Shown: piece after piece, positions 14,540 through 22,176 of the stretch
Layout: every line of letters begins with the position of its first letter
Position numbering within the stretch: the stretch's first letter is position 1
Assembly: GCA_964344465.1 (NCBI GenBank)
Contig: CAYFNN010000003.1
Span: 11,801 to 41,700, forward strand
Length of the DNA: 29,900 nucleotides
Direction: 5' to 3'
From: an uncultured Bifidobacterium sp.
GTDB lineage: Bacteria; Actinomycetota; Acidimicrobiia; Acidimicrobiales; Ilumatobacteraceae
Notes under the pieces: generated by a model
What the model was told of the DNA's origin: nothing
The model's input: the letters and a program-made list of their open reading frames with translations, nothing else
The model's database searches: none
Translations under genes and position numbers: made by a program

Positions 14540-16228
14540 ATGACTTACGACTTTGACCGCTTCTTGCGCTACGACGAGATGTCGGAGTGGTTGCGCGCAC
14601 TCGCCACACAGCACCCGAACCTGCTCACGGTTGAAAGTTACGGTCAGTCGCACCTCGGTCGCGACCTGCTCGTTGCCACCATCACCGACACGCGCTCAGG
14701 TGAGCACGATACGAAGCCTGCCCATTGGATTGATGCCAATATTCATGCAGTCGAAGTCACGGGCGGCGTGGCGGCGCTGTACATCATCCACCACCTCGTA
14801 ACGAAGTTTGTCGAGAAGGATGAGACTGTCGTTGAGGCATTGCGTACGCGCACGTTTTACATCGCGCCACGCGTAAACCCCGATGGCGTCGAAGATGCAC
14901 TTGCAGACCGACCGCTGTTCCACCGCTCGAGCGTGAGACCCTGGCCGTGGCGCGACGGTCACCGCTGGCCGGGCTTACATCCACAAGACATCGACGGTGA
15001 CGGTCGTATTCTCACGATGCGCATCGCCGACCCAGACGGTGCGTGGATGCCACACCCTGACGAGCCGCGCGTGATGATTCCCGTTGGACCGCTTGGCGCA
15101 CCAAAGGGTGCGACGCGCTATCGACTGCTCACCGAAGGGCTCATCGAGAACTACGACGGTTTCACCGTCGATCAGCCGCGCGACCCTGCTGGTCTCGACT
15201 TGAATCGCAACTTTCCGGCGGGCTGGGGTGTCGATGTACTCGGCTCGGGTGATCACCCGATGAGCGAGCCAGAAATTCACGCTCTCGTTCGTGCGGTAAA
15301 GGCGCGACCGAATGTGTGTGGCTACAACGCGTTCCATACCGCGGGTGGTTTCATGTTGCGACCGAGCAGCAATCTGCCCGACTCAAAGTTGCCGCCCGAA
15401 GATCTCTTCATCTTCAAGAAATTCGGTGAACACTCGACGCCGCTCACGACGTATCCGGTGCATTCGGTGTATGAAGACCTCACTTGGGACAAGTCGCGCG
15501 TGATGGGCGGCGCAGGTGACGACTGGGCGTACGACCACCTCGGCGTGTATTCGTGGACAACCGAGTTTTGGGATGCGATCTACCGTGCGACCGGCGAACA
15601 TTCACCCACAGACGTGTGGTACGTCGGCCCGACGCCGACTCAAGACCTCGCTGTGTGCCACTGGAGCGACACGCACGCCCCGGGGTCGTATGTGGCGTGG
15701 CGAAAGTTCAAGCATCCACAACTTGGCACGGTCGAACTTGGCGGCCCCGACATGTTCCACATCTGGACCAATGCCCCGTCGGCGATGTTGCGAGCCGAGG
15801 TTTCCGCCCATGCCGATGTTGCGATCTACCAAGCGATGGCATCGCCGCGACTCGAGATCAAATTGGCTGAAGCCGAATCACTCGGTGGCGCCGTATGGAA
15901 GGTACGACTCGGCGTCGCCAACACTGGATGGCTGCCGACCAACGTCACGCAACACGCGAAACACAAGAACATCGTGTTGCCAGCGGTCGTTGAGATCACG
16001 GGCCCAAATGGTGCAGCCGTCGATCTCGTTGAGGGTGAAGCGCGCGTACGCATTGGACAACTCGAGGGGCGCTCAAAGGTGCTGCTCGATGGTGGGTCGA
16101 TGTCCGACGGAACCACTGACCGTCATCTGCACACGTGGATTGTCCGCGCTAAGAAAGGCAGTGTGCTGACATTGTCAGCATCGCATCAACGCGCTGGTTC
16201 GGTGTCGACCAACGTGACGCTCGCCTGA
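14540..16228 (+). CDS. M14 family zinc carboxypeptidase
   Basis: DANIHAVE (HxxE), VNPDG, DLNRNF, SEPE, AFHT, WTTE motifs; DIDGDG Ca-binding-like loop; no signal peptide. Confidence 0.9.
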   Translation: MTYDFDRFLRYDEMSEWLRALATQHPNLLTVESYGQSHLGRDLLVATITDTRSGEHDTKPAHWIDANIHAVEVTGGVAALYIIHHLVTKFVEKDETVVEALRTRTFYIAPRVNPDGVEDALADRPLFHRSSVRPWPWRDGHRWPGLHPQDIDGDGRILTMRIADPDGAWMPHPDEPRVMIPVGPLGAPKGATRYRLLTEGLIENYDGFTVDQPRDPAGLDLNRNFPAGWGVDVLGSGDHPMSEPEIHALVRAVKARPNVCGYNAFHTAGGFMLRPSSNLPDSKLPPEDLFIFKKFGEHSTPLTTYPVHSVYEDLTWDKSRVMGGAGDDWAYDHLGVYSWTTEFWDAIYRATGEHSPTDVWYVGPTPTQDLAVCHWSDTHAPGSYVAWRKFKHPQLGTVELGGPDMFHIWTNAPSAMLRAEVSAHADVAIYQAMASPRLEIKLAEAESLGGAVWKVRLGVANTGWLPTNVTQHAKHKNIVLPAVVEITGPNGAAVDLVEGEARVRIGQLEGRSKVLLDGGSMSDGTTDRHLHTWIVRAKKGSVLTLSASHQRAGSVSTNVTLA

Positions 16229-16854
16229 GCGGGTGGCACCTGGCCCATATCGCCTGACGCATGGCGCACCTGGTCTGATGCATGGCGTGAACGCCACGCC
16301 TTCCATGCGATGTATGACGCACAGGGGATGAGTACCAAGTTCGGATACGACACGACAGGGTCACCAATCGAGAGACCGTAGGTGAACCATCCGATGCCCA
16401 TCGAAGCGAGCAGCACGTTGGATATGACCGAGACTCCGAAGAGATACTTGGTGCGCAGTGCACGCCACACCTGCGGGAAGATCGCCGGGGTACCGATTAC
16501 TACGCCGGCGAGGCCGATCACCGTCGGAGAGATGAACGCAAAGGTCACACAGAACGCACCCGTCGCTACCGCGACAAGCACCGGCTGCCAGAGCGGAATC
16601 GCGTTTTTGCGCACGAGCATCACCATCAACGCAATGATGGCAAGCTCGATGTTGATGTTCGACAGGATCATCGGGACACTCTCGGTAGTGATCGCATACG
16701 TCAACCACATCGGTGTGCCGGTGAGACCGATGAGATGCGAGTGTGGCGCAATTCCCTCAACGCTCTGGCGGGCGTAGACACGCACCACTTGTGGCCAAAT
16801 GAACGCAACACCGAGCAGGCTGGCGAGCGTGCCCGAAATCGTCGCCAACGTCAC
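16186..16854 (-). CDS. 7-TM SWEET/PQ-loop family transporter
   Basis: From GTG 16854: FIWPQVVRV...MWLTYA...LSN, a linker helix, then IFPQVWRA...GWFTYG...YPN, i.e. two PQ repeats plus a central TM. The upstream part of the 327-aa track ORF is antisense to the methyltransferase. Confidence 0.8.
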   Translation of the reverse strand: MTLATISGTLASLLGVAFIWPQVVRVYARQSVEGIAPHSHLIGLTGTPMWLTYAITTESVPMILSNINIELAIIALMVMLVRKNAIPLWQPVLVAVATGAFCVTFAFISPTVIGLAGVVIGTPAIFPQVWRALRTKYLFGVSVISNVLLASMGIGWFTYGLSIGDPVVSYPNLVLIPCASYIAWKAWRSRHASDQVRHASGDMGQVPPAQASVTLVDTEPAR

Positions 16855-16860
16855 GCGCCA

Positions 16861-16893
16861 AACATAATGTGTAGTACGAACGTGCCGTAGCCT
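16861..16893. promoter_or_regulatory. back-to-back leaderless-type -10 elements
   Basis: Minus TATGTT (16866-16861) + 6 nt + GTG 16854; plus TAGCCT (16888-16893) + 6 nt + GTG 16900. Confidence 0.7.
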
Positions 16894-16899
16894 GACGGC

Positions 16900-17523
16900 G
16901 TGTCGCGCACGACTTCGAGTGGTCAAAGCTGGGATGAGCGCTACGCCGAAGACGGTTTTGCATTCGGTACCGAACCGAACGACTTTCTGCGCGAAATTGC
17001 CGACCAACTGCCCGTCGGTCGCACGCTGTGTCTCGGCGATGGCGAGGGTCGAAACGGCGTGTTTCTCGCCCAACTCGGCCACGACGTGGTGACCATTGAC
17101 CTGAGCCCCGTCGGCGTCGTGAAAGCGCGTCGAATGGCTGCCGAACGCCAGGTAAACATCGACGCCCAAGTAGCCGACCTTGAGACCTACGACCTCGGGG
17201 TCGACAAGTGGGATTCAATTGTCTCGGTGTTCTGCCATCTTCCACCGACGCTGCGGCACAAGGTGCACACCGCCGTTCCTGCGGCGTTGCGACACGATGG
17301 TTGTTTCGTGCTCGAGGCATATCGCGCAGCAAACATCGGTCGCGGCGTTGGCGGGCCACAGAACTCGGAGATGACCGTCGAGCTTGAAGACATCTTGCAC
17401 GACCTCGGCGATGCCAATCGTCTGTCGCTGGTGATCGGCCGCGAGGTCGAACGCGAGATCTTCGAAGGCAAGTACCACAACGGCAAGAGCGCCACCACCC
17501 AGGTGCTCGCACGCAAGCGCTGA
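16900..17523 (+). CDS. class I SAM-dependent methyltransferase (TehB-like)
   Basis: WDERY...FG..PN.FL, LCLGDGEGRN..FLA, IDLS..G motifs. Confidence 0.9.
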   Translation: MSRTTSSGQSWDERYAEDGFAFGTEPNDFLREIADQLPVGRTLCLGDGEGRNGVFLAQLGHDVVTIDLSPVGVVKARRMAAERQVNIDAQVADLETYDLGVDKWDSIVSVFCHLPPTLRHKVHTAVPAALRHDGCFVLEAYRAANIGRGVGGPQNSEMTVELEDILHDLGDANRLSLVIGREVEREIFEGKYHNGKSATTQVLARKR

Positions 17524-17531
17524 GGACGAAC

Positions 17532-18251
17532 GTGTCGCGGCTACTTCGCTACACCATTGTCGTCGTGGCGGCCCTTCTCGTGGTCTTCGTCGGCGGTCCG
17601 TGGGTGTACATCAATTTCATCCGCGAAGACGCACCCGAAAGTTTCGTCGCTGAAGTGACCGTCACCACCGTCGCTTCTGGTGATGCGACTACCACCACCG
17701 CTGCGAGTGACGACTCAACCGTCGACGGCATTGCCGACCCGTCAGGTGTGTGGACGGTGACGAGTGAATCCCAGGCCGGTTACCGGGTGGATGAAGTGCT
17801 TTTTGGCCAAAACGTGACCGCAGTTGGTCGCACAAACGCCATCGTAGGCACCGTCGAGATTGCCAGTAATCAAGTGCAGGCAGCCACGTTTGAAGTTGAC
17901 ATGACCACGGTGACGAGCGACGAGCCCAAGCGTGACGCGCAGTTTGCGAGCCGCATCATGGACGTGCTGAATTACCCGACCGCCACCTTCGTGCTCGAAT
18001 CACCGATCGTGCTGCCTGCAGACGCACCAGCGACCAGCACCACGCACACTGCACGCGGGGCACTCACGTTGCGCGGCACGACGAAGACCATCGACTTCAC
18101 CATTGCGAGCACCGTGCGAGACGGTCGCATCGTGGTGATCGGTGAAACTCAAATCGTGTTCGCCGATTGGAACATCCCAAATCCGTCGATACCGGGTATC
18201 AGCACCGAAGATTTCGGCGTGCTTGAATTCAATCTCGTACTCGAGCGTTAA
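17532..18251 (+). CDS. YceI family (lipid/polyisoprenoid-binding) protein, membrane-anchored
   Basis: N-terminal TM, AGYRVDE, AVGRT, RD.QF...MDV.NYPTATF, G.LTLRGTTK; GAGGA SD 5 nt upstream. Confidence 0.9.
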   Translation: MSRLLRYTIVVVAALLVVFVGGPWVYINFIREDAPESFVAEVTVTTVASGDATTTTAASDDSTVDGIADPSGVWTVTSESQAGYRVDEVLFGQNVTAVGRTNAIVGTVEIASNQVQAATFEVDMTTVTSDEPKRDAQFASRIMDVLNYPTATFVLESPIVLPADAPATSTTHTARGALTLRGTTKTIDFTIASTVRDGRIVVIGETQIVFADWNIPNPSIPGISTEDFGVLEFNLVLER

Positions 18252-18254
18252 GTC

Positions 18255-19715
18255 ATGCACACCGTCTTTGGCGTCACGTTGATTGCCGCAAAACCTGCTG
18301 ATGCAACGCGTGAAGCCCAAATGCGCGAGGCAGTTGGTTCGCTGATCCTGCCTTGGCTCGAAGCGACTTGGCCCGATGCGCGTCGCACCAACACCGTGCA
18401 GGTGAACGCTCGAAGCGCAGTTACCGACAAGGTGTTCCGGGTTGATATCTCCGAACAACATCCTGATGGTGAAGCGCGCCAAGTTACTTCGGTGTCGATG
18501 TACAACACTCAACGCGGCGACCTGTGCGTCGACGTTCGGCGAGAGGTTCGACCCACGGGCACAGCCGTGCTGCCGCGCAAACGCACCGAGCTGCCGCCTG
18601 AGTCTCTTACCAATCTCGTCGCCAGCATCGCGCGAGAGCTGCGCATTCGCGACGCGCAACATGTGGTCTCGCCAGGCATCAGCCGAGCGACCAGCGAACT
18701 CGATGGACAAGCCGTAGCTGCACTCATCGACGCGCCATCGCGACGACTACCCGTCATCGTCGAGAGCACTGCCAACAAGGCGCGTACGGTAACCAACCCC
18801 GAGACGGCGCGGGTACTCACGGGCACGGCGCACGTGCATCAGCTCGCAACGGTTGAAGCCGAGCGCGGCTTCAACCAAGTCAGCGGCCAACGCAAAGCCA
18901 GCACGAGTTGGGTGATCGTCGCGTGGCCGGGCCTCGGCAAGGCCGCCCGACTCGATGCATATCCGCAACAAGATGACGAACGCCTCGTGCACGACCTGCT
19001 CGCGGCAGCAGTCGGGGCACTGCCGATACAGCCTCGCCCGACCGCACGACAAACCACCCTGTCGAATGTGCCCATTCAACAGGTCGTTGCCAATACCTCG
19101 TCACCGGAAGTCGGCGAGTTGCGCCGCAAGAACCAGGAACTTGAACAGCGGCTGCACAATTTGCAGGGCGACTACGACGACTTGCACGAAAACCTCACGA
19201 CGACCGAACACCTCACCGCGAAAATGGCCGAGGATCGTGATCGTTACCTCAATCAACTCACGGGCCTGCTCGCCTTACGCAACGACCCCAAGGAGTGGAG
19301 CAGCACACAGCAAGTAATCGAGCGCGCACAGCGGTCGTTCGCTTCGCTTGACTTCCACCAATCGGTCGTGCAGCGTCTCGGAAAGACGTCGTTTCCGCCA
19401 GCCACGAATCAACGTATTTTTGGCAACCTTCTTGAACTGAACAACCTCACCGCCCGGCTGCGACGGGGCGACATCGAACCGCACTTGTTCAATACCTACT
19501 GCACGGAGAAATTCAACTTTGCGCCTTCAGTCAGCGACAACGCAATCAATAAGTACGGCAGTGACTACACCCTTGATTGGAACGGCAAGAGCATTCAACT
19601 AGGCCCGCACATTCGGTGCAACGAGGCTCGTATCTATTTTTATCTCGACCAGAGCGAACGTCGAGTGGTGATCGGCCATATCGGCGAACACCTGCGCGAC
19701 AAGTCGACGAACTAG
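18255..19715 (+). CDS. hypothetical protein: N-terminal alpha/beta domains, central coiled coil, C-terminal RelE/ParE-like region
   Basis: Clean 486-aa ORF filling the yceI-SDR gap; heptad-rich ELRRKNQELEQRLHNLQGDYDDLHENL; C-terminal HIR...RIYFYLDQSERRVVIGHIGEHL. The fold call is inference. Confidence 0.6.
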   Translation: MHTVFGVTLIAAKPADATREAQMREAVGSLILPWLEATWPDARRTNTVQVNARSAVTDKVFRVDISEQHPDGEARQVTSVSMYNTQRGDLCVDVRREVRPTGTAVLPRKRTELPPESLTNLVASIARELRIRDAQHVVSPGISRATSELDGQAVAALIDAPSRRLPVIVESTANKARTVTNPETARVLTGTAHVHQLATVEAERGFNQVSGQRKASTSWVIVAWPGLGKAARLDAYPQQDDERLVHDLLAAAVGALPIQPRPTARQTTLSNVPIQQVVANTSSPEVGELRRKNQELEQRLHNLQGDYDDLHENLTTTEHLTAKMAEDRDRYLNQLTGLLALRNDPKEWSSTQQVIERAQRSFASLDFHQSVVQRLGKTSFPPATNQRIFGNLLELNNLTARLRRGDIEPHLFNTYCTEKFNFAPSVSDNAINKYGSDYTLDWNGKSIQLGPHIRCNEARIYFYLDQSERRVVIGHIGEHLRDKSTN

Positions 19716-20465
19716 TCAGCGACGCGTCATGCGTCGCCACACGCCTTGTGCCAACGACGAGGCAAGAAACGGTCGTGCCAGCCGATACACCAGCCCCGGC
19801 ACGATCACCGATTGACCGCGTTTCATTGCCCGACGGGTATCGCGCACAACGTGTTCGGGCGTCAACCACATCCACTTGGGCACCTGCCGAACGAGGTGCT
19901 CGAGGCCGGCGCGGCGGTGCAAGTCGGTGCGCACGTAACCCGGACATACCGCGACCACGTGCACGCCTTTGGGCTGCACCTCCAGTGCGAGGCTGCGCGC
20001 GTAGGCCGTTGCCGCCGACTTCGCTGCTGCATAGGGCCCGGCTTTTCGCATTGGTGTGAACGCTGCGATGCTCGACACCACCACGACTTCACCGAATCCG
20101 CGGCTCACCATTCCCGGCACGAGGGCCTCGCATAGCCGCACCACCCCCGCAGACATCAAGTACGACAACCGATCGAGTTCGTCTCTTGACGTCGTGCCGA
20201 TTGGCGCTGCATGCGTGACACCGGCGTTCGCCACGACGACATCGATTTCACCGACCTGAACAAGCAGCGCATCGACGCCTGCCGCATCAGACAGGTCGGC
20301 CACCACGGTGCGTGTCGTGGCACCGAGTGAACCAAGGGCTGTAGCAACTCGTGCCAATTCGGCTACCGACCGCCCTGCGAGCACGACTTCATCACCGCGC
20401 GCCGCATGCCATCGTGCAAAGGCCTCGCCGATACCCGATGACGCACCTGTCACCAACACCCGCAC
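19716..20465 (-). CDS. short-chain dehydrogenase/reductase (SDR)
   Basis: VTGASSGIG, VVANAG, VSS, YAAAK, PGYVRT motifs. Start uncertain: GTG 20465 gives MRVLVTG; ATG 20507 is the alternative. Confidence 0.9.
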   Translation of the reverse strand: MRVLVTGASSGIGEAFARWHAARGDEVVLAGRSVAELARVATALGSLGATTRTVVADLSDAAGVDALLVQVGEIDVVVANAGVTHAAPIGTTSRDELDRLSYLMSAGVVRLCEALVPGMVSRGFGEVVVVSSIAAFTPMRKAGPYAAAKSAATAYARSLALEVQPKGVHVVAVCPGYVRTDLHRRAGLEHLVRQVPKWMWLTPEHVVRDTRRAMKRGQSVIVPGLVYRLARPFLASSLAQGVWRRMTRR

Positions 20466-20492
20466 ACGTTGAGCCTCGCACACTTCATCATT

Positions 20493-20498
20493 TAGCGT
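20493..20498 (+). promoter_or_regulatory. leaderless-type -10 element for the DUF885 gene
   Basis: TAGCGT + 7 nt + ATG 20506, no SD. Confidence 0.6.
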
Positions 20499-20505
20499 CG
20501 TACTC

Positions 20506-22176
20506 ATGGCTTCACCCGTGTACGAACTCTCCGACGCATACATCGACCGACTCGCCCAACTCGACCCCGGTTATGCCACGGCCTTGGGTATCGAGGGCAG
20601 TGACCATTTGATGACCGACTTCAGCCCGGCTGGTCACGAAGCGCAAGAGGCACTGAATCGCCAGACTTTGGCGAAACTCAATTCGCTCGATCAATCAAAC
20701 GATGCCGACCGACTAGCGGCTGGTGTGTTGCGCAACTCACTCGAGATGTCAGAACGTGAGTTCGCAGCGGGTGAACACCTGCGGTCTATTCGTGTACTGG
20801 CTGGAAACGTTGACTACGCACGATCGGTATTCGACCTCATGCCCACCGACACCGCAGAACAGTGGCAGACCATCGCACAGCGCATGAGTCGTGTATCGCA
20901 GGCGTTTGCCGGAATGCGCGAGTCATGGCGACTCGGAATGCAGCGCAACACGGTGGCACCACTGCGTCAAGTGCTGGCGGTTGCAGAGATGCTCGAAGGC
21001 TGGGCGGGTACGAGCAGCGCACCGGGCTTCTTTGCGTCACTCGCCGAGCGTGCAACACCTGTGAAGGGTGCGCCGCTCGAAGATCTACGTCGCGCCGCCA
21101 ACGACGCCGCACGCGCGTTGAGCGAGACCGCCACATTTCTCCGTAAGGAATATGCGCCCGTTGCCGACCCGCGCAACGGTGTGGGCGAAGAGCGCCATGC
21201 GTTGGCACGTCAGAGGTACATGGGCATGCATGTCGATGCCGACGATGCGTACGACTGGGGACTTGAGGAAGTGCGACGACTTGATGCCGAACTCGTCAAG
21301 TGCGCGCGCGTCATCAACCCGTCTGCGTCACTCGATGAAGTGCGCCACCAGCTCGACAACGACCCCGAGCATGCAATCGAAGGTGAGGAAAATCTGCGTT
21401 CCTGGTTGCAGAACTTGATGGATGATGCCATGCACTTTCTCATCTCGAACAACCATTTCGACATACCCGCGTCAATTCGCACGATTGACGCCAAGATTTC
21501 ACCTCCCGGTGGCGCGGCCGCGCAGTACTACATGCCGCCGAGCGAAGACCTCAGCAGACCGGGCAGCACGTGGTATCCCGCGAATGGTCGCACGCGGTTT
21601 CCATTATGGAGCGAACCGACGACGGCGTATCACGAGGGCGTACCGGGACATCACCTCCAGATCGGCATGGCCGTCGTCAATCGAGAGAAACTGTCGCGCT
21701 TTCAACGCAATGAATTCGTCAGCGGTCACGGTGAAGGTTGGGCGCTCTACGCCGAACGACTGATGGATGAACTCGGCTTCCTCGATCGCCCGGAGTATCG
21801 ACTGGGCTATCTCTACGCCCAGGCGTTTCGTGCAGCACGTGTTGTGGTGGATATCGGCATGCATTGCGAGAAGAAGATTCCCGCATCGTGGGGCTGGCAC
21901 TCAGGCGAAGTCTGGACACCCGAGTTGGCGCTGGAATTCCTCTCGGCTCGGTCGTCGAACGATGATGCGTTCAACCGATCGGAGATCGACCGCTATCTCG
22001 GATGGCCGGCACAAGCAATCTCCTACAAGTTGGGTGAGCGAGTCTGGCTGCAATTGCGCGATGAGGCCAGAGCGCGACATGGCGCCGCTTTCGACATTCG
22101 CGCCTGGCACACGTACGCACTCGACTTGGGAAACTTGGGGCTCGAGCTCTTCACGCGCGAGATGGCTCGCTTCTAG
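20506..22176 (+). CDS. DUF885 family protein (putative metallopeptidase)
   Basis: YHEGVPGHHLQ, EGWALYAE, RAARVVVDIGMH, EIDRY..WPAQA.SYK.G motifs; no signal peptide. Confidence 0.9.
   Translation: MASPVYELSDAYIDRLAQLDPGYATALGIEGSDHLMTDFSPAGHEAQEALNRQTLAKLNSLDQSNDADRLAAGVLRNSLEMSEREFAAGEHLRSIRVLAGNVDYARSVFDLMPTDTAEQWQTIAQRMSRVSQAFAGMRESWRLGMQRNTVAPLRQVLAVAEMLEGWAGTSSAPGFFASLAERATPVKGAPLEDLRRAANDAARALSETATFLRKEYAPVADPRNGVGEERHALARQRYMGMHVDADDAYDWGLEEVRRLDAELVKCARVINPSASLDEVRHQLDNDPEHAIEGEENLRSWLQNLMDDAMHFLISNNHFDIPASIRTIDAKISPPGGAAAQYYMPPSEDLSRPGSTWYPANGRTRFPLWSEPTTAYHEGVPGHHLQIGMAVVNREKLSRFQRNEFVSGHGEGWALYAERLMDELGFLDRPEYRLGYLYAQAFRAARVVVDIGMHCEKKIPASWGWHSGEVWTPELALEFLSARSSNDDAFNRSEIDRYLGWPAQAISYKLGERVWLQLRDEARARHGAAFDIRAWHTYALDLGNLGLELFTREMARF

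Follow-up and report, generated by a model that had tools for sequence, protein, structure and literature searches.

The window analysed here is a stretch of 29,900 nt from a freshwater acIV-lineage member of the Ilumatobacteraceae (Acidimicrobiia), a group known from lake metagenome-assembled genomes; the host genome measures 1.64 Mb and is 90% complete. Our subject is a 486-aa ORF, which is arranged with its two neighbours as follows:

17532..18251, + strand: yceI (Pfam YceI), the upstream neighbour; not a partner, and absent here in other genera
18255..19715, + strand: ORF for a divergent HEC-07-type protein (ATG start, 486 aa and a TAG stop)
19716..20543, − strand: short-chain dehydrogenase (SDR) gene, convergent and downstream (adh_short, E 3e-44)

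The TAA stop codon of yceI ends at 18251, 3 nt ahead of the ATG at 18255, and the TAG of the 486-aa ORF (19713-19715) abuts the stop codon of the convergent SDR gene (19716-19718) with a gap of 0 nt, confirming the junctions given in a preliminary description of this DNA. There is no space for a further gene on either side, the gene upstream changes from genus to genus and no neighbour is conserved across genera; the gene thus has no partner, and the same description was right that no cognate antitoxin gene adjoins it. The ORF is a real, conserved gene: it has 66 close homologs, and 1,158 cluster representatives matched the family profile at E ≤ 1e-3 when searched exhaustively, many of them ~500-550 aa long and aligned from about residue 115-150 to the end. 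It is single-copy, with no second paralog found in the host genome. Its GC content (0.59-0.61) equals that of the window and thus gives no compositional sign of insertion, and comparison with viral contigs yielded two weak partial matches only, hence no evidence of phage carriage. One aquatic metatranscriptome run contained a single 170-nt contig 100% identical to positions 19229-19398, with the remainder of a 5.5-kb stretch uncovered; this lone contig is too little to claim transcription, and DNA carry-over is possible.

The preliminary description ranked this as the least explained gene of the window. Scans of the protein against Pfam, NCBIfam and PHROGs returned coiled-coil noise only, but its homology to HEC-07 (below) shows that it is no orphan. 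We built an AlphaFold2 model of the full-length protein on a 34-sequence family alignment (32-87% identity; mean pLDDT 81.8), and the model reproduced the layout that had been read from the letters, namely an N-terminal domain, a second domain, a linker, a coiled coil and a C-terminal domain:

18255..18647, + strand: domain 1 (aa 1-131), alpha/beta N-terminal domain, AdoMetDC-like (model, structure match and alignment to HEC-07)
18669..19022, + strand: domain 2 (aa 139-256), alpha/beta, thioredoxin-like without CxxC, with the motifs RLPVIV, AHV and WPG (structure matches)
19023..19103, + strand: linker (aa 257-283), disordered and variable (pLDDT < 50 at 264-283; indel-rich alignment columns)
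19104..19283, + strand: coiled-coil helix of 60 residues (aa 284-343), a single helix in the model
19284..19712, + strand: putative C-terminal effector domain (aa 344-486), with a predicted RelE/YafQ-like BECR RNase fold at about aa 363-486
19608..19700, + strand: candidate catalytic residues H452, R454, R459, D465, H479, R481 and D482 (family conservation)

Searched as a whole against the PDB with Foldseek, the full-length model gave no match at E ≤ 1e-3, and the folds were read domain by domain. Domain 1 matched the N-domain of spermine synthase (3c6k_B, residues 6-116; Z 8.3, 94 aligned residues, rmsd 3.1) in a near-tie with an SRPBCC protein (3ijt_A, Z 8.2), so that its AdoMetDC-like label is a soft one; it also aligns to the N-domain of HEC-07 relatives by hhalign. 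Domain 2 matched 5ayk_A (Z 9.8, 107 aligned residues) and 3vfi_A (Z 8.2), and since residues 139-256 hold no cysteine, the CxxC motif is absent from this thioredoxin-like domain. Four motifs in the N-terminal half are invariant in the 34-sequence alignment, RPT...LPR (~99-108, within a loop at 98-110), SRRLP (162-166), AH (192-193) and WP (224-225), and they are conserved in canonical HEC-07 relatives too.

The C-terminal domain was folded alone on a 64-sequence alignment, with a pLDDT of 95. Its best Foldseek match was RelE (1wmi_A, probability 0.99), and an independent aligner likewise returned RelE (3bpq_D, Z 6.7 over 85 of 86 residues), YafQ (4q2u_B, Z 6.3), YoeB (Z 6.0) and HP0892 (4ls4_A, Z 5.6), with HigB and ParE also among the matches; together these six families occupy nearly all of the top 22 rows, at Z-scores that are modest throughout (≤ 6.7). 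A profile of the domain searched against PDB sequences hit no toxin and gave TPR-like noise only. As modelled, then, the C-terminal domain adopts a RelE/ParE-superfamily fold, much as the preliminary description had supposed from its closing residues.

Conservation within this domain is concentrated on a small set of residues. H452, R454, R459, D465, G477, H479, L480, R481 and D482 are invariant in the 34-sequence family, and across 64 diverse C-domains of the superfamily H452 is invariant while R459 and D465 reach 90% conservation or more. NsnC-C (PB-BECR1) has been classed as a BECR RNase with a proposed H-R-H triad (PMC12065111). We assigned the active site by analogy to this triad and to H543 of HEC-07: H452, R454 and H479 are plausible equivalents of the H-R-H residues, and H479, which sits 7 residues from the protein end, would correspond to H543 of the tested HEC-07 protein. 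RelE-family members differ greatly in their catalytic residues, and some superfamily members carry K instead of H479; both points speak for a reading in which the fold would be catalytically dead and the domain would serve as an RNA- or ribosome-binding module of a scaffold protein. We regard this as very improbable, given the invariance of H452 and the near-invariance of R459 and D465 across the superfamily, the invariance of R454 and H479 in the family, and the match of the set to the triad proposed for NsnC-C.

Payne et al. (2024, bioRxiv 10.1101/2024.01.29.577857) described HEC-07, or Hma-embedded candidate 07, as an anti-phage protein encoded by one gene and consisting of an AdoMetDC-like domain, a thioredoxin-like domain without Cx2C and a RelE-like domain with a conserved His. 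Seven of the nine HEC candidates reduced plaquing in E. coli, each for at least two coliphages (10.1101/2024.01.29.577857), and HEC-07 belongs to these seven, since HEC-01 and HEC-09 were the only two that failed to protect. Its protection was assayed in E. coli with the P. aeruginosa representative alone, and the available part of the preprint text reports no mutagenesis of HEC-07 RNase residues (10.1101/2024.01.29.577857).

The family is represented in PADLOC-DB v2 by models PDLC04158-04161. Run directly on the 486-aa protein, the HEC-07 model matched the last ~100 residues only (E 7.6e-12), so that full-length membership rests on intermediate sequences. Model PDLC04161 was matched by 55 of 56 distant relatives (best E 1.5e-61), several canonical relatives spanning nearly all of it (positions 22-550 of 553). 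When the 34-sequence family was aligned to 30 such canonical relatives with hhalign, the two families aligned end to end over 457 columns (probability 100%, E 2.4e-51), and an HMM of the canonical relatives in turn matched the 486-aa ORF at E 2.8e-53 over HMM positions 28-515 of 516. These two comparisons indicate full-length homology that goes beyond a shared effector domain, and the three structures used to describe HEC-07 (3C6K, 3VFI and HP0892) all match domains of our model. On these profile alignments, the protein is a divergent full-length member of HEC-07. The kinship to single-gene RelE-domain defence proteins that had been suggested for it thus holds, and it accounts for the gene that had been understood least of all in this stretch.

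One of the canonical relatives of HEC-07, P0133, is found on a metagenomic contig (L117, 2008-9455) next to a CAP12-PCTIR TIR-domain gene and a Vsr endonuclease gene; the same stretch also holds two unannotated genes of 236 and 651 aa and resembles a defence-island context.

We then considered how the gene is inherited. It occurs in 23 of the 24 genomes of its genus, the single miss being a genome that is 78% complete, and the order methyltransferase - YceI - 486-aa gene - SDR - DUF885 is kept in all 12 loci examined within the genus, which also settles the question of its presence between yceI and SDR in close relatives. Across the Ilumatobacteraceae, 7 of 61 sampled genera have a match: four at 4/4 genomes, one at 2/2, and two in which every sampled genome that could be checked matched. 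All seven have small genomes, and the gene is retained in streamlined genomes of 1.5-2 Mb. In three further genera it stays between DUF885 and a PQ-loop/M14 peptidase, and in a fourth the DUF885 side only is kept. The small neighbours vary between genera (loci L021-L026 compared with window positions 16900-20543), YceI being seen in the window's genus only and the methyltransferase and SDR in just some of the genera. No tRNA genes were found near non-syntenic relatives.

Wider in the class, matches occur in 11 of 152 genera of Acidimicrobiia, mostly all-or-none by genus, including canonical-type HEC-07 genes in other families (18 of 19 genomes of one genus, G229, at loci L123-L126, and 3 of 3 genomes of another). 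Such all-or-none distribution, with fixation within the genus, is unusual for a defence gene. In some genomes of other genera the homolog was matched as two pieces (G136:C52:8164-9666, G047:C157:15750-17087 and G109:C82:13747-15270), for which a frameshift or pseudogene, an error of assembly or low linker similarity could account.

The flanking genes are housekeeping genes by Pfam, and PADLOC found no defence genes among ten neighbours save a generic methyltransferase match to mad2. The gene concerned encodes a SAM methyltransferase (16900-17523) that matches mad2 at E 5e-9 over the generic methyltransferase domain only; its place next to the 486-aa gene is conserved within the genus, and a link to defence is improbable. 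The PQ-loop/SWEET-like gene has as its longest ORF 16186..17169 (− strand, TTG start), which shares 270 nt with the start of the methyltransferase gene at 16900; since the Pfam match only sets in at residue 109, translation probably starts further downstream.

Evolutionary rates were compared with those of the neighbours. Against the two closest orthologs, dN/dS is ~0.055 in every domain, a rough value since dS is saturated (> 1); it equals that of DUF885 and lies below those of YceI, SDR and the methyltransferase, and the putative sensor domains show no sign of diversifying selection. Taken with the normal GC and the synteny, these results do not support the earlier impression that the gene had been inserted among housekeeping genes, and a recent horizontal insertion can be rejected on GC and synteny. 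The gene is vertically inherited, syntenic and clade-core in the acIV Ilumatobacteraceae, not mobile cargo. The preliminary description had counted core status without defence-island association against a defensive role, and that is what we find at this locus.

Core status, synteny, housekeeping neighbours and the lack of diversifying selection are unusual in defence genes and would suit a housekeeping role just as well. In the main rival explanation, the protein of acIV, and perhaps that of other Acidimicrobiia, would be a housekeeping RNase that has been domesticated and is no longer, or never was, anti-phage. It would act as a core regulator of translation or RNA turnover, such as a stress or starvation mRNA interferase whose N-terminal domains sense a cellular metabolite. 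Near-fixation in the genus and the all-or-none pattern in the 7 matching genera of 61, a position between DUF885 and PQ-loop/M14 peptidase kept across several genera, a dN/dS level with DUF885 and under its other neighbours, retention in streamlined genomes, the fixation of a canonical-type HEC-07 gene in a genus of another family (18/19) and the want of defence neighbours all speak for this explanation. Against it, the sole tested member of the family is an anti-phage protein, and a canonical relative adjoins TIR and Vsr genes. Between genera, moreover, the 486-aa protein has diverged much faster than its conserved neighbours (25-37% identity, compared with 63-79% for DUF885 and M14), and 54 of the 61 sampled genera in the family lack the gene, which is therefore not essential. 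Weighing both sides, we give the housekeeping RNase a substantial minority chance.

Turning to quaternary structure, we find that the protein is predicted to form a homodimer through its coiled coil and a docked loop. The two-copy prediction scored 0.78, compared with 0.00 for the best of three controls, on a scale whose mark was attained by 20 of 30 proteins with solved structures that are one-chain pairs and by 1 of 23 whose solved structures are single chains, with the caveat that coiled coils readily pass such tests; at least 73% of contacts agreed between runs, and partner pLDDT was at least 79. Two contacts make up the predicted interface. In the first, the coiled coils pair in parallel and in register over residues 285-339, with symmetric contacts at 289/293/296/300/303/307/310; in the second, loop 98-110 docks reciprocally on the partner's thioredoxin-like domain at 163-166, 191-192, 224-227 and 247-258. 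The residues in this reciprocal contact are exactly the invariant motifs of the N-terminal half, so the N-terminal motifs that the family conserves most would lie where the two subunits of the predicted dimer meet, which provides a concrete, testable structural hypothesis. The self-association through the coiled coil proposed at the outset is therefore borne out by prediction, but as a constitutive dimer and not as an oligomer induced by a trigger.

The RNase domain lies outside the predicted interface, free for masking and release. This would also suit a cis-fused toxin-antitoxin (addiction) module, in which the N-terminal half, covalently attached to the RelE domain, would serve as its antitoxin and would not sense phage, and both the RelE fold and the absence of a separate antitoxin gene agree with such an arrangement. 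Addiction modules are typically mobile and patchy, however, and this gene is chromosomal, syntenic and fixed in its clade; its AdoMetDC-like and thioredoxin-like N-domains resemble no known antitoxin, and the strong superfamily-wide conservation of the N-domain motifs suggests more than masking. We consider a fused addiction module improbable.

The reading that we prefer, and hold to be probably correct as a whole, is an HEC-07-type sensor-effector homodimer with a RelE-like RNase, anti-phage in function and vertically inherited in acIV. The RNase activity, the trigger and the defence role in the acIV host that we infer would combine as follows. A parallel coiled coil would join two subunits, with the invariant N-domain loop of each docked on the partner's CxxC-less thioredoxin-like domain, and two C-terminal RelE/YafQ-like RNase domains would hang from this constitutive scaffold and stay silent as long as the cell is not infected. 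The N-terminal domains would sense a trigger, most probably a product of the phage or a change brought on by infection, and this trigger would release or activate the RNase. The active RNase would then cut RNA (by analogy with RelE-family toxins, ribosome-bound mRNA), halting translation and aborting the infection.

The branch is fixed in freshwater acIV Actinobacteria, which are abundant and uncultured and whose small genomes are believed to hold few defences. We tentatively suggest, as a possibility rather than an expectation, that the HEC-07-type proteins of Acidimicrobiia are not mobile defence cargo but were anciently fixed and passed on vertically, either as a constitutive, low-cost innate immunity or as a defence-derived RNase domesticated into a core translation regulator. 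Should the innate-immunity branch be true, such immunity would be kept even by genome-streamlined plankton. A gene that is fixed in its lineage here, and that elsewhere has defence-like surroundings, is relevant to how defence genes come to be resident.

Finally, we compared the protein with systems already described. With type II RelE/ParE toxins it shares the fold of its last ~125 residues and a near-C-terminal His, as in YafQ, YoeB and HP0892; unlike those systems, it has no antitoxin gene here, and the domain is fused to ~340 residues of putative sensor and scaffold domains. PD-T4-7, named earlier as a comparator, was rejected: a PADLOC scan at E ≤ 10 gave NsnC and HEC-07 models only, and HEC-07 takes its place. 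In the available part of the Vassallo preprint, PD-T4-7 is placed among toxin-antitoxin-like systems and a RelE-plus-sheath protein is also named, the two not being linked there.

Among the PADLOC matches, NsnC of Menshen scored E 1.6e-13 (PDLC03912) over residues 308-480 and E 7e-13 (PDLC03879). The two proteins have in common a homologous C-domain with a BECR/RelE-like fold and conserved residues of the H-R-H type. They differ in that the N-terminal part of the 486-aa protein is not an inactive-PIN domain and that the protein stands alone, with no NsnA (ParB-DUF262) or NsnB (ABC ATPase) found nearby (10 neighbours by PADLOC, 7 by Pfam).

HEC-07 is the closest counterpart in architecture. Both are single genes without a partner, and both present the same order of an AdoMetDC-like N-domain, a CxxC-less thioredoxin fold and a RelE-like RNase domain with a conserved C-terminal His. 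Our protein differs in being ~20% identical to canonical relatives and slightly shorter (486 aa compared with ~500-550). Its gene is not Hma-embedded and lies outside any defence context (such a setting led to the discovery of HEC-07 and is not a strict requirement), and it is fixed and syntenic in a freshwater acIV Ilumatobacteraceae clade rather than patchy. The HEC-07 family is thus known already, and what is new here is a divergent, lineage-fixed member, which extends HEC-07 to a branch that PADLOC's HEC-07 models detect at the C-terminus only.
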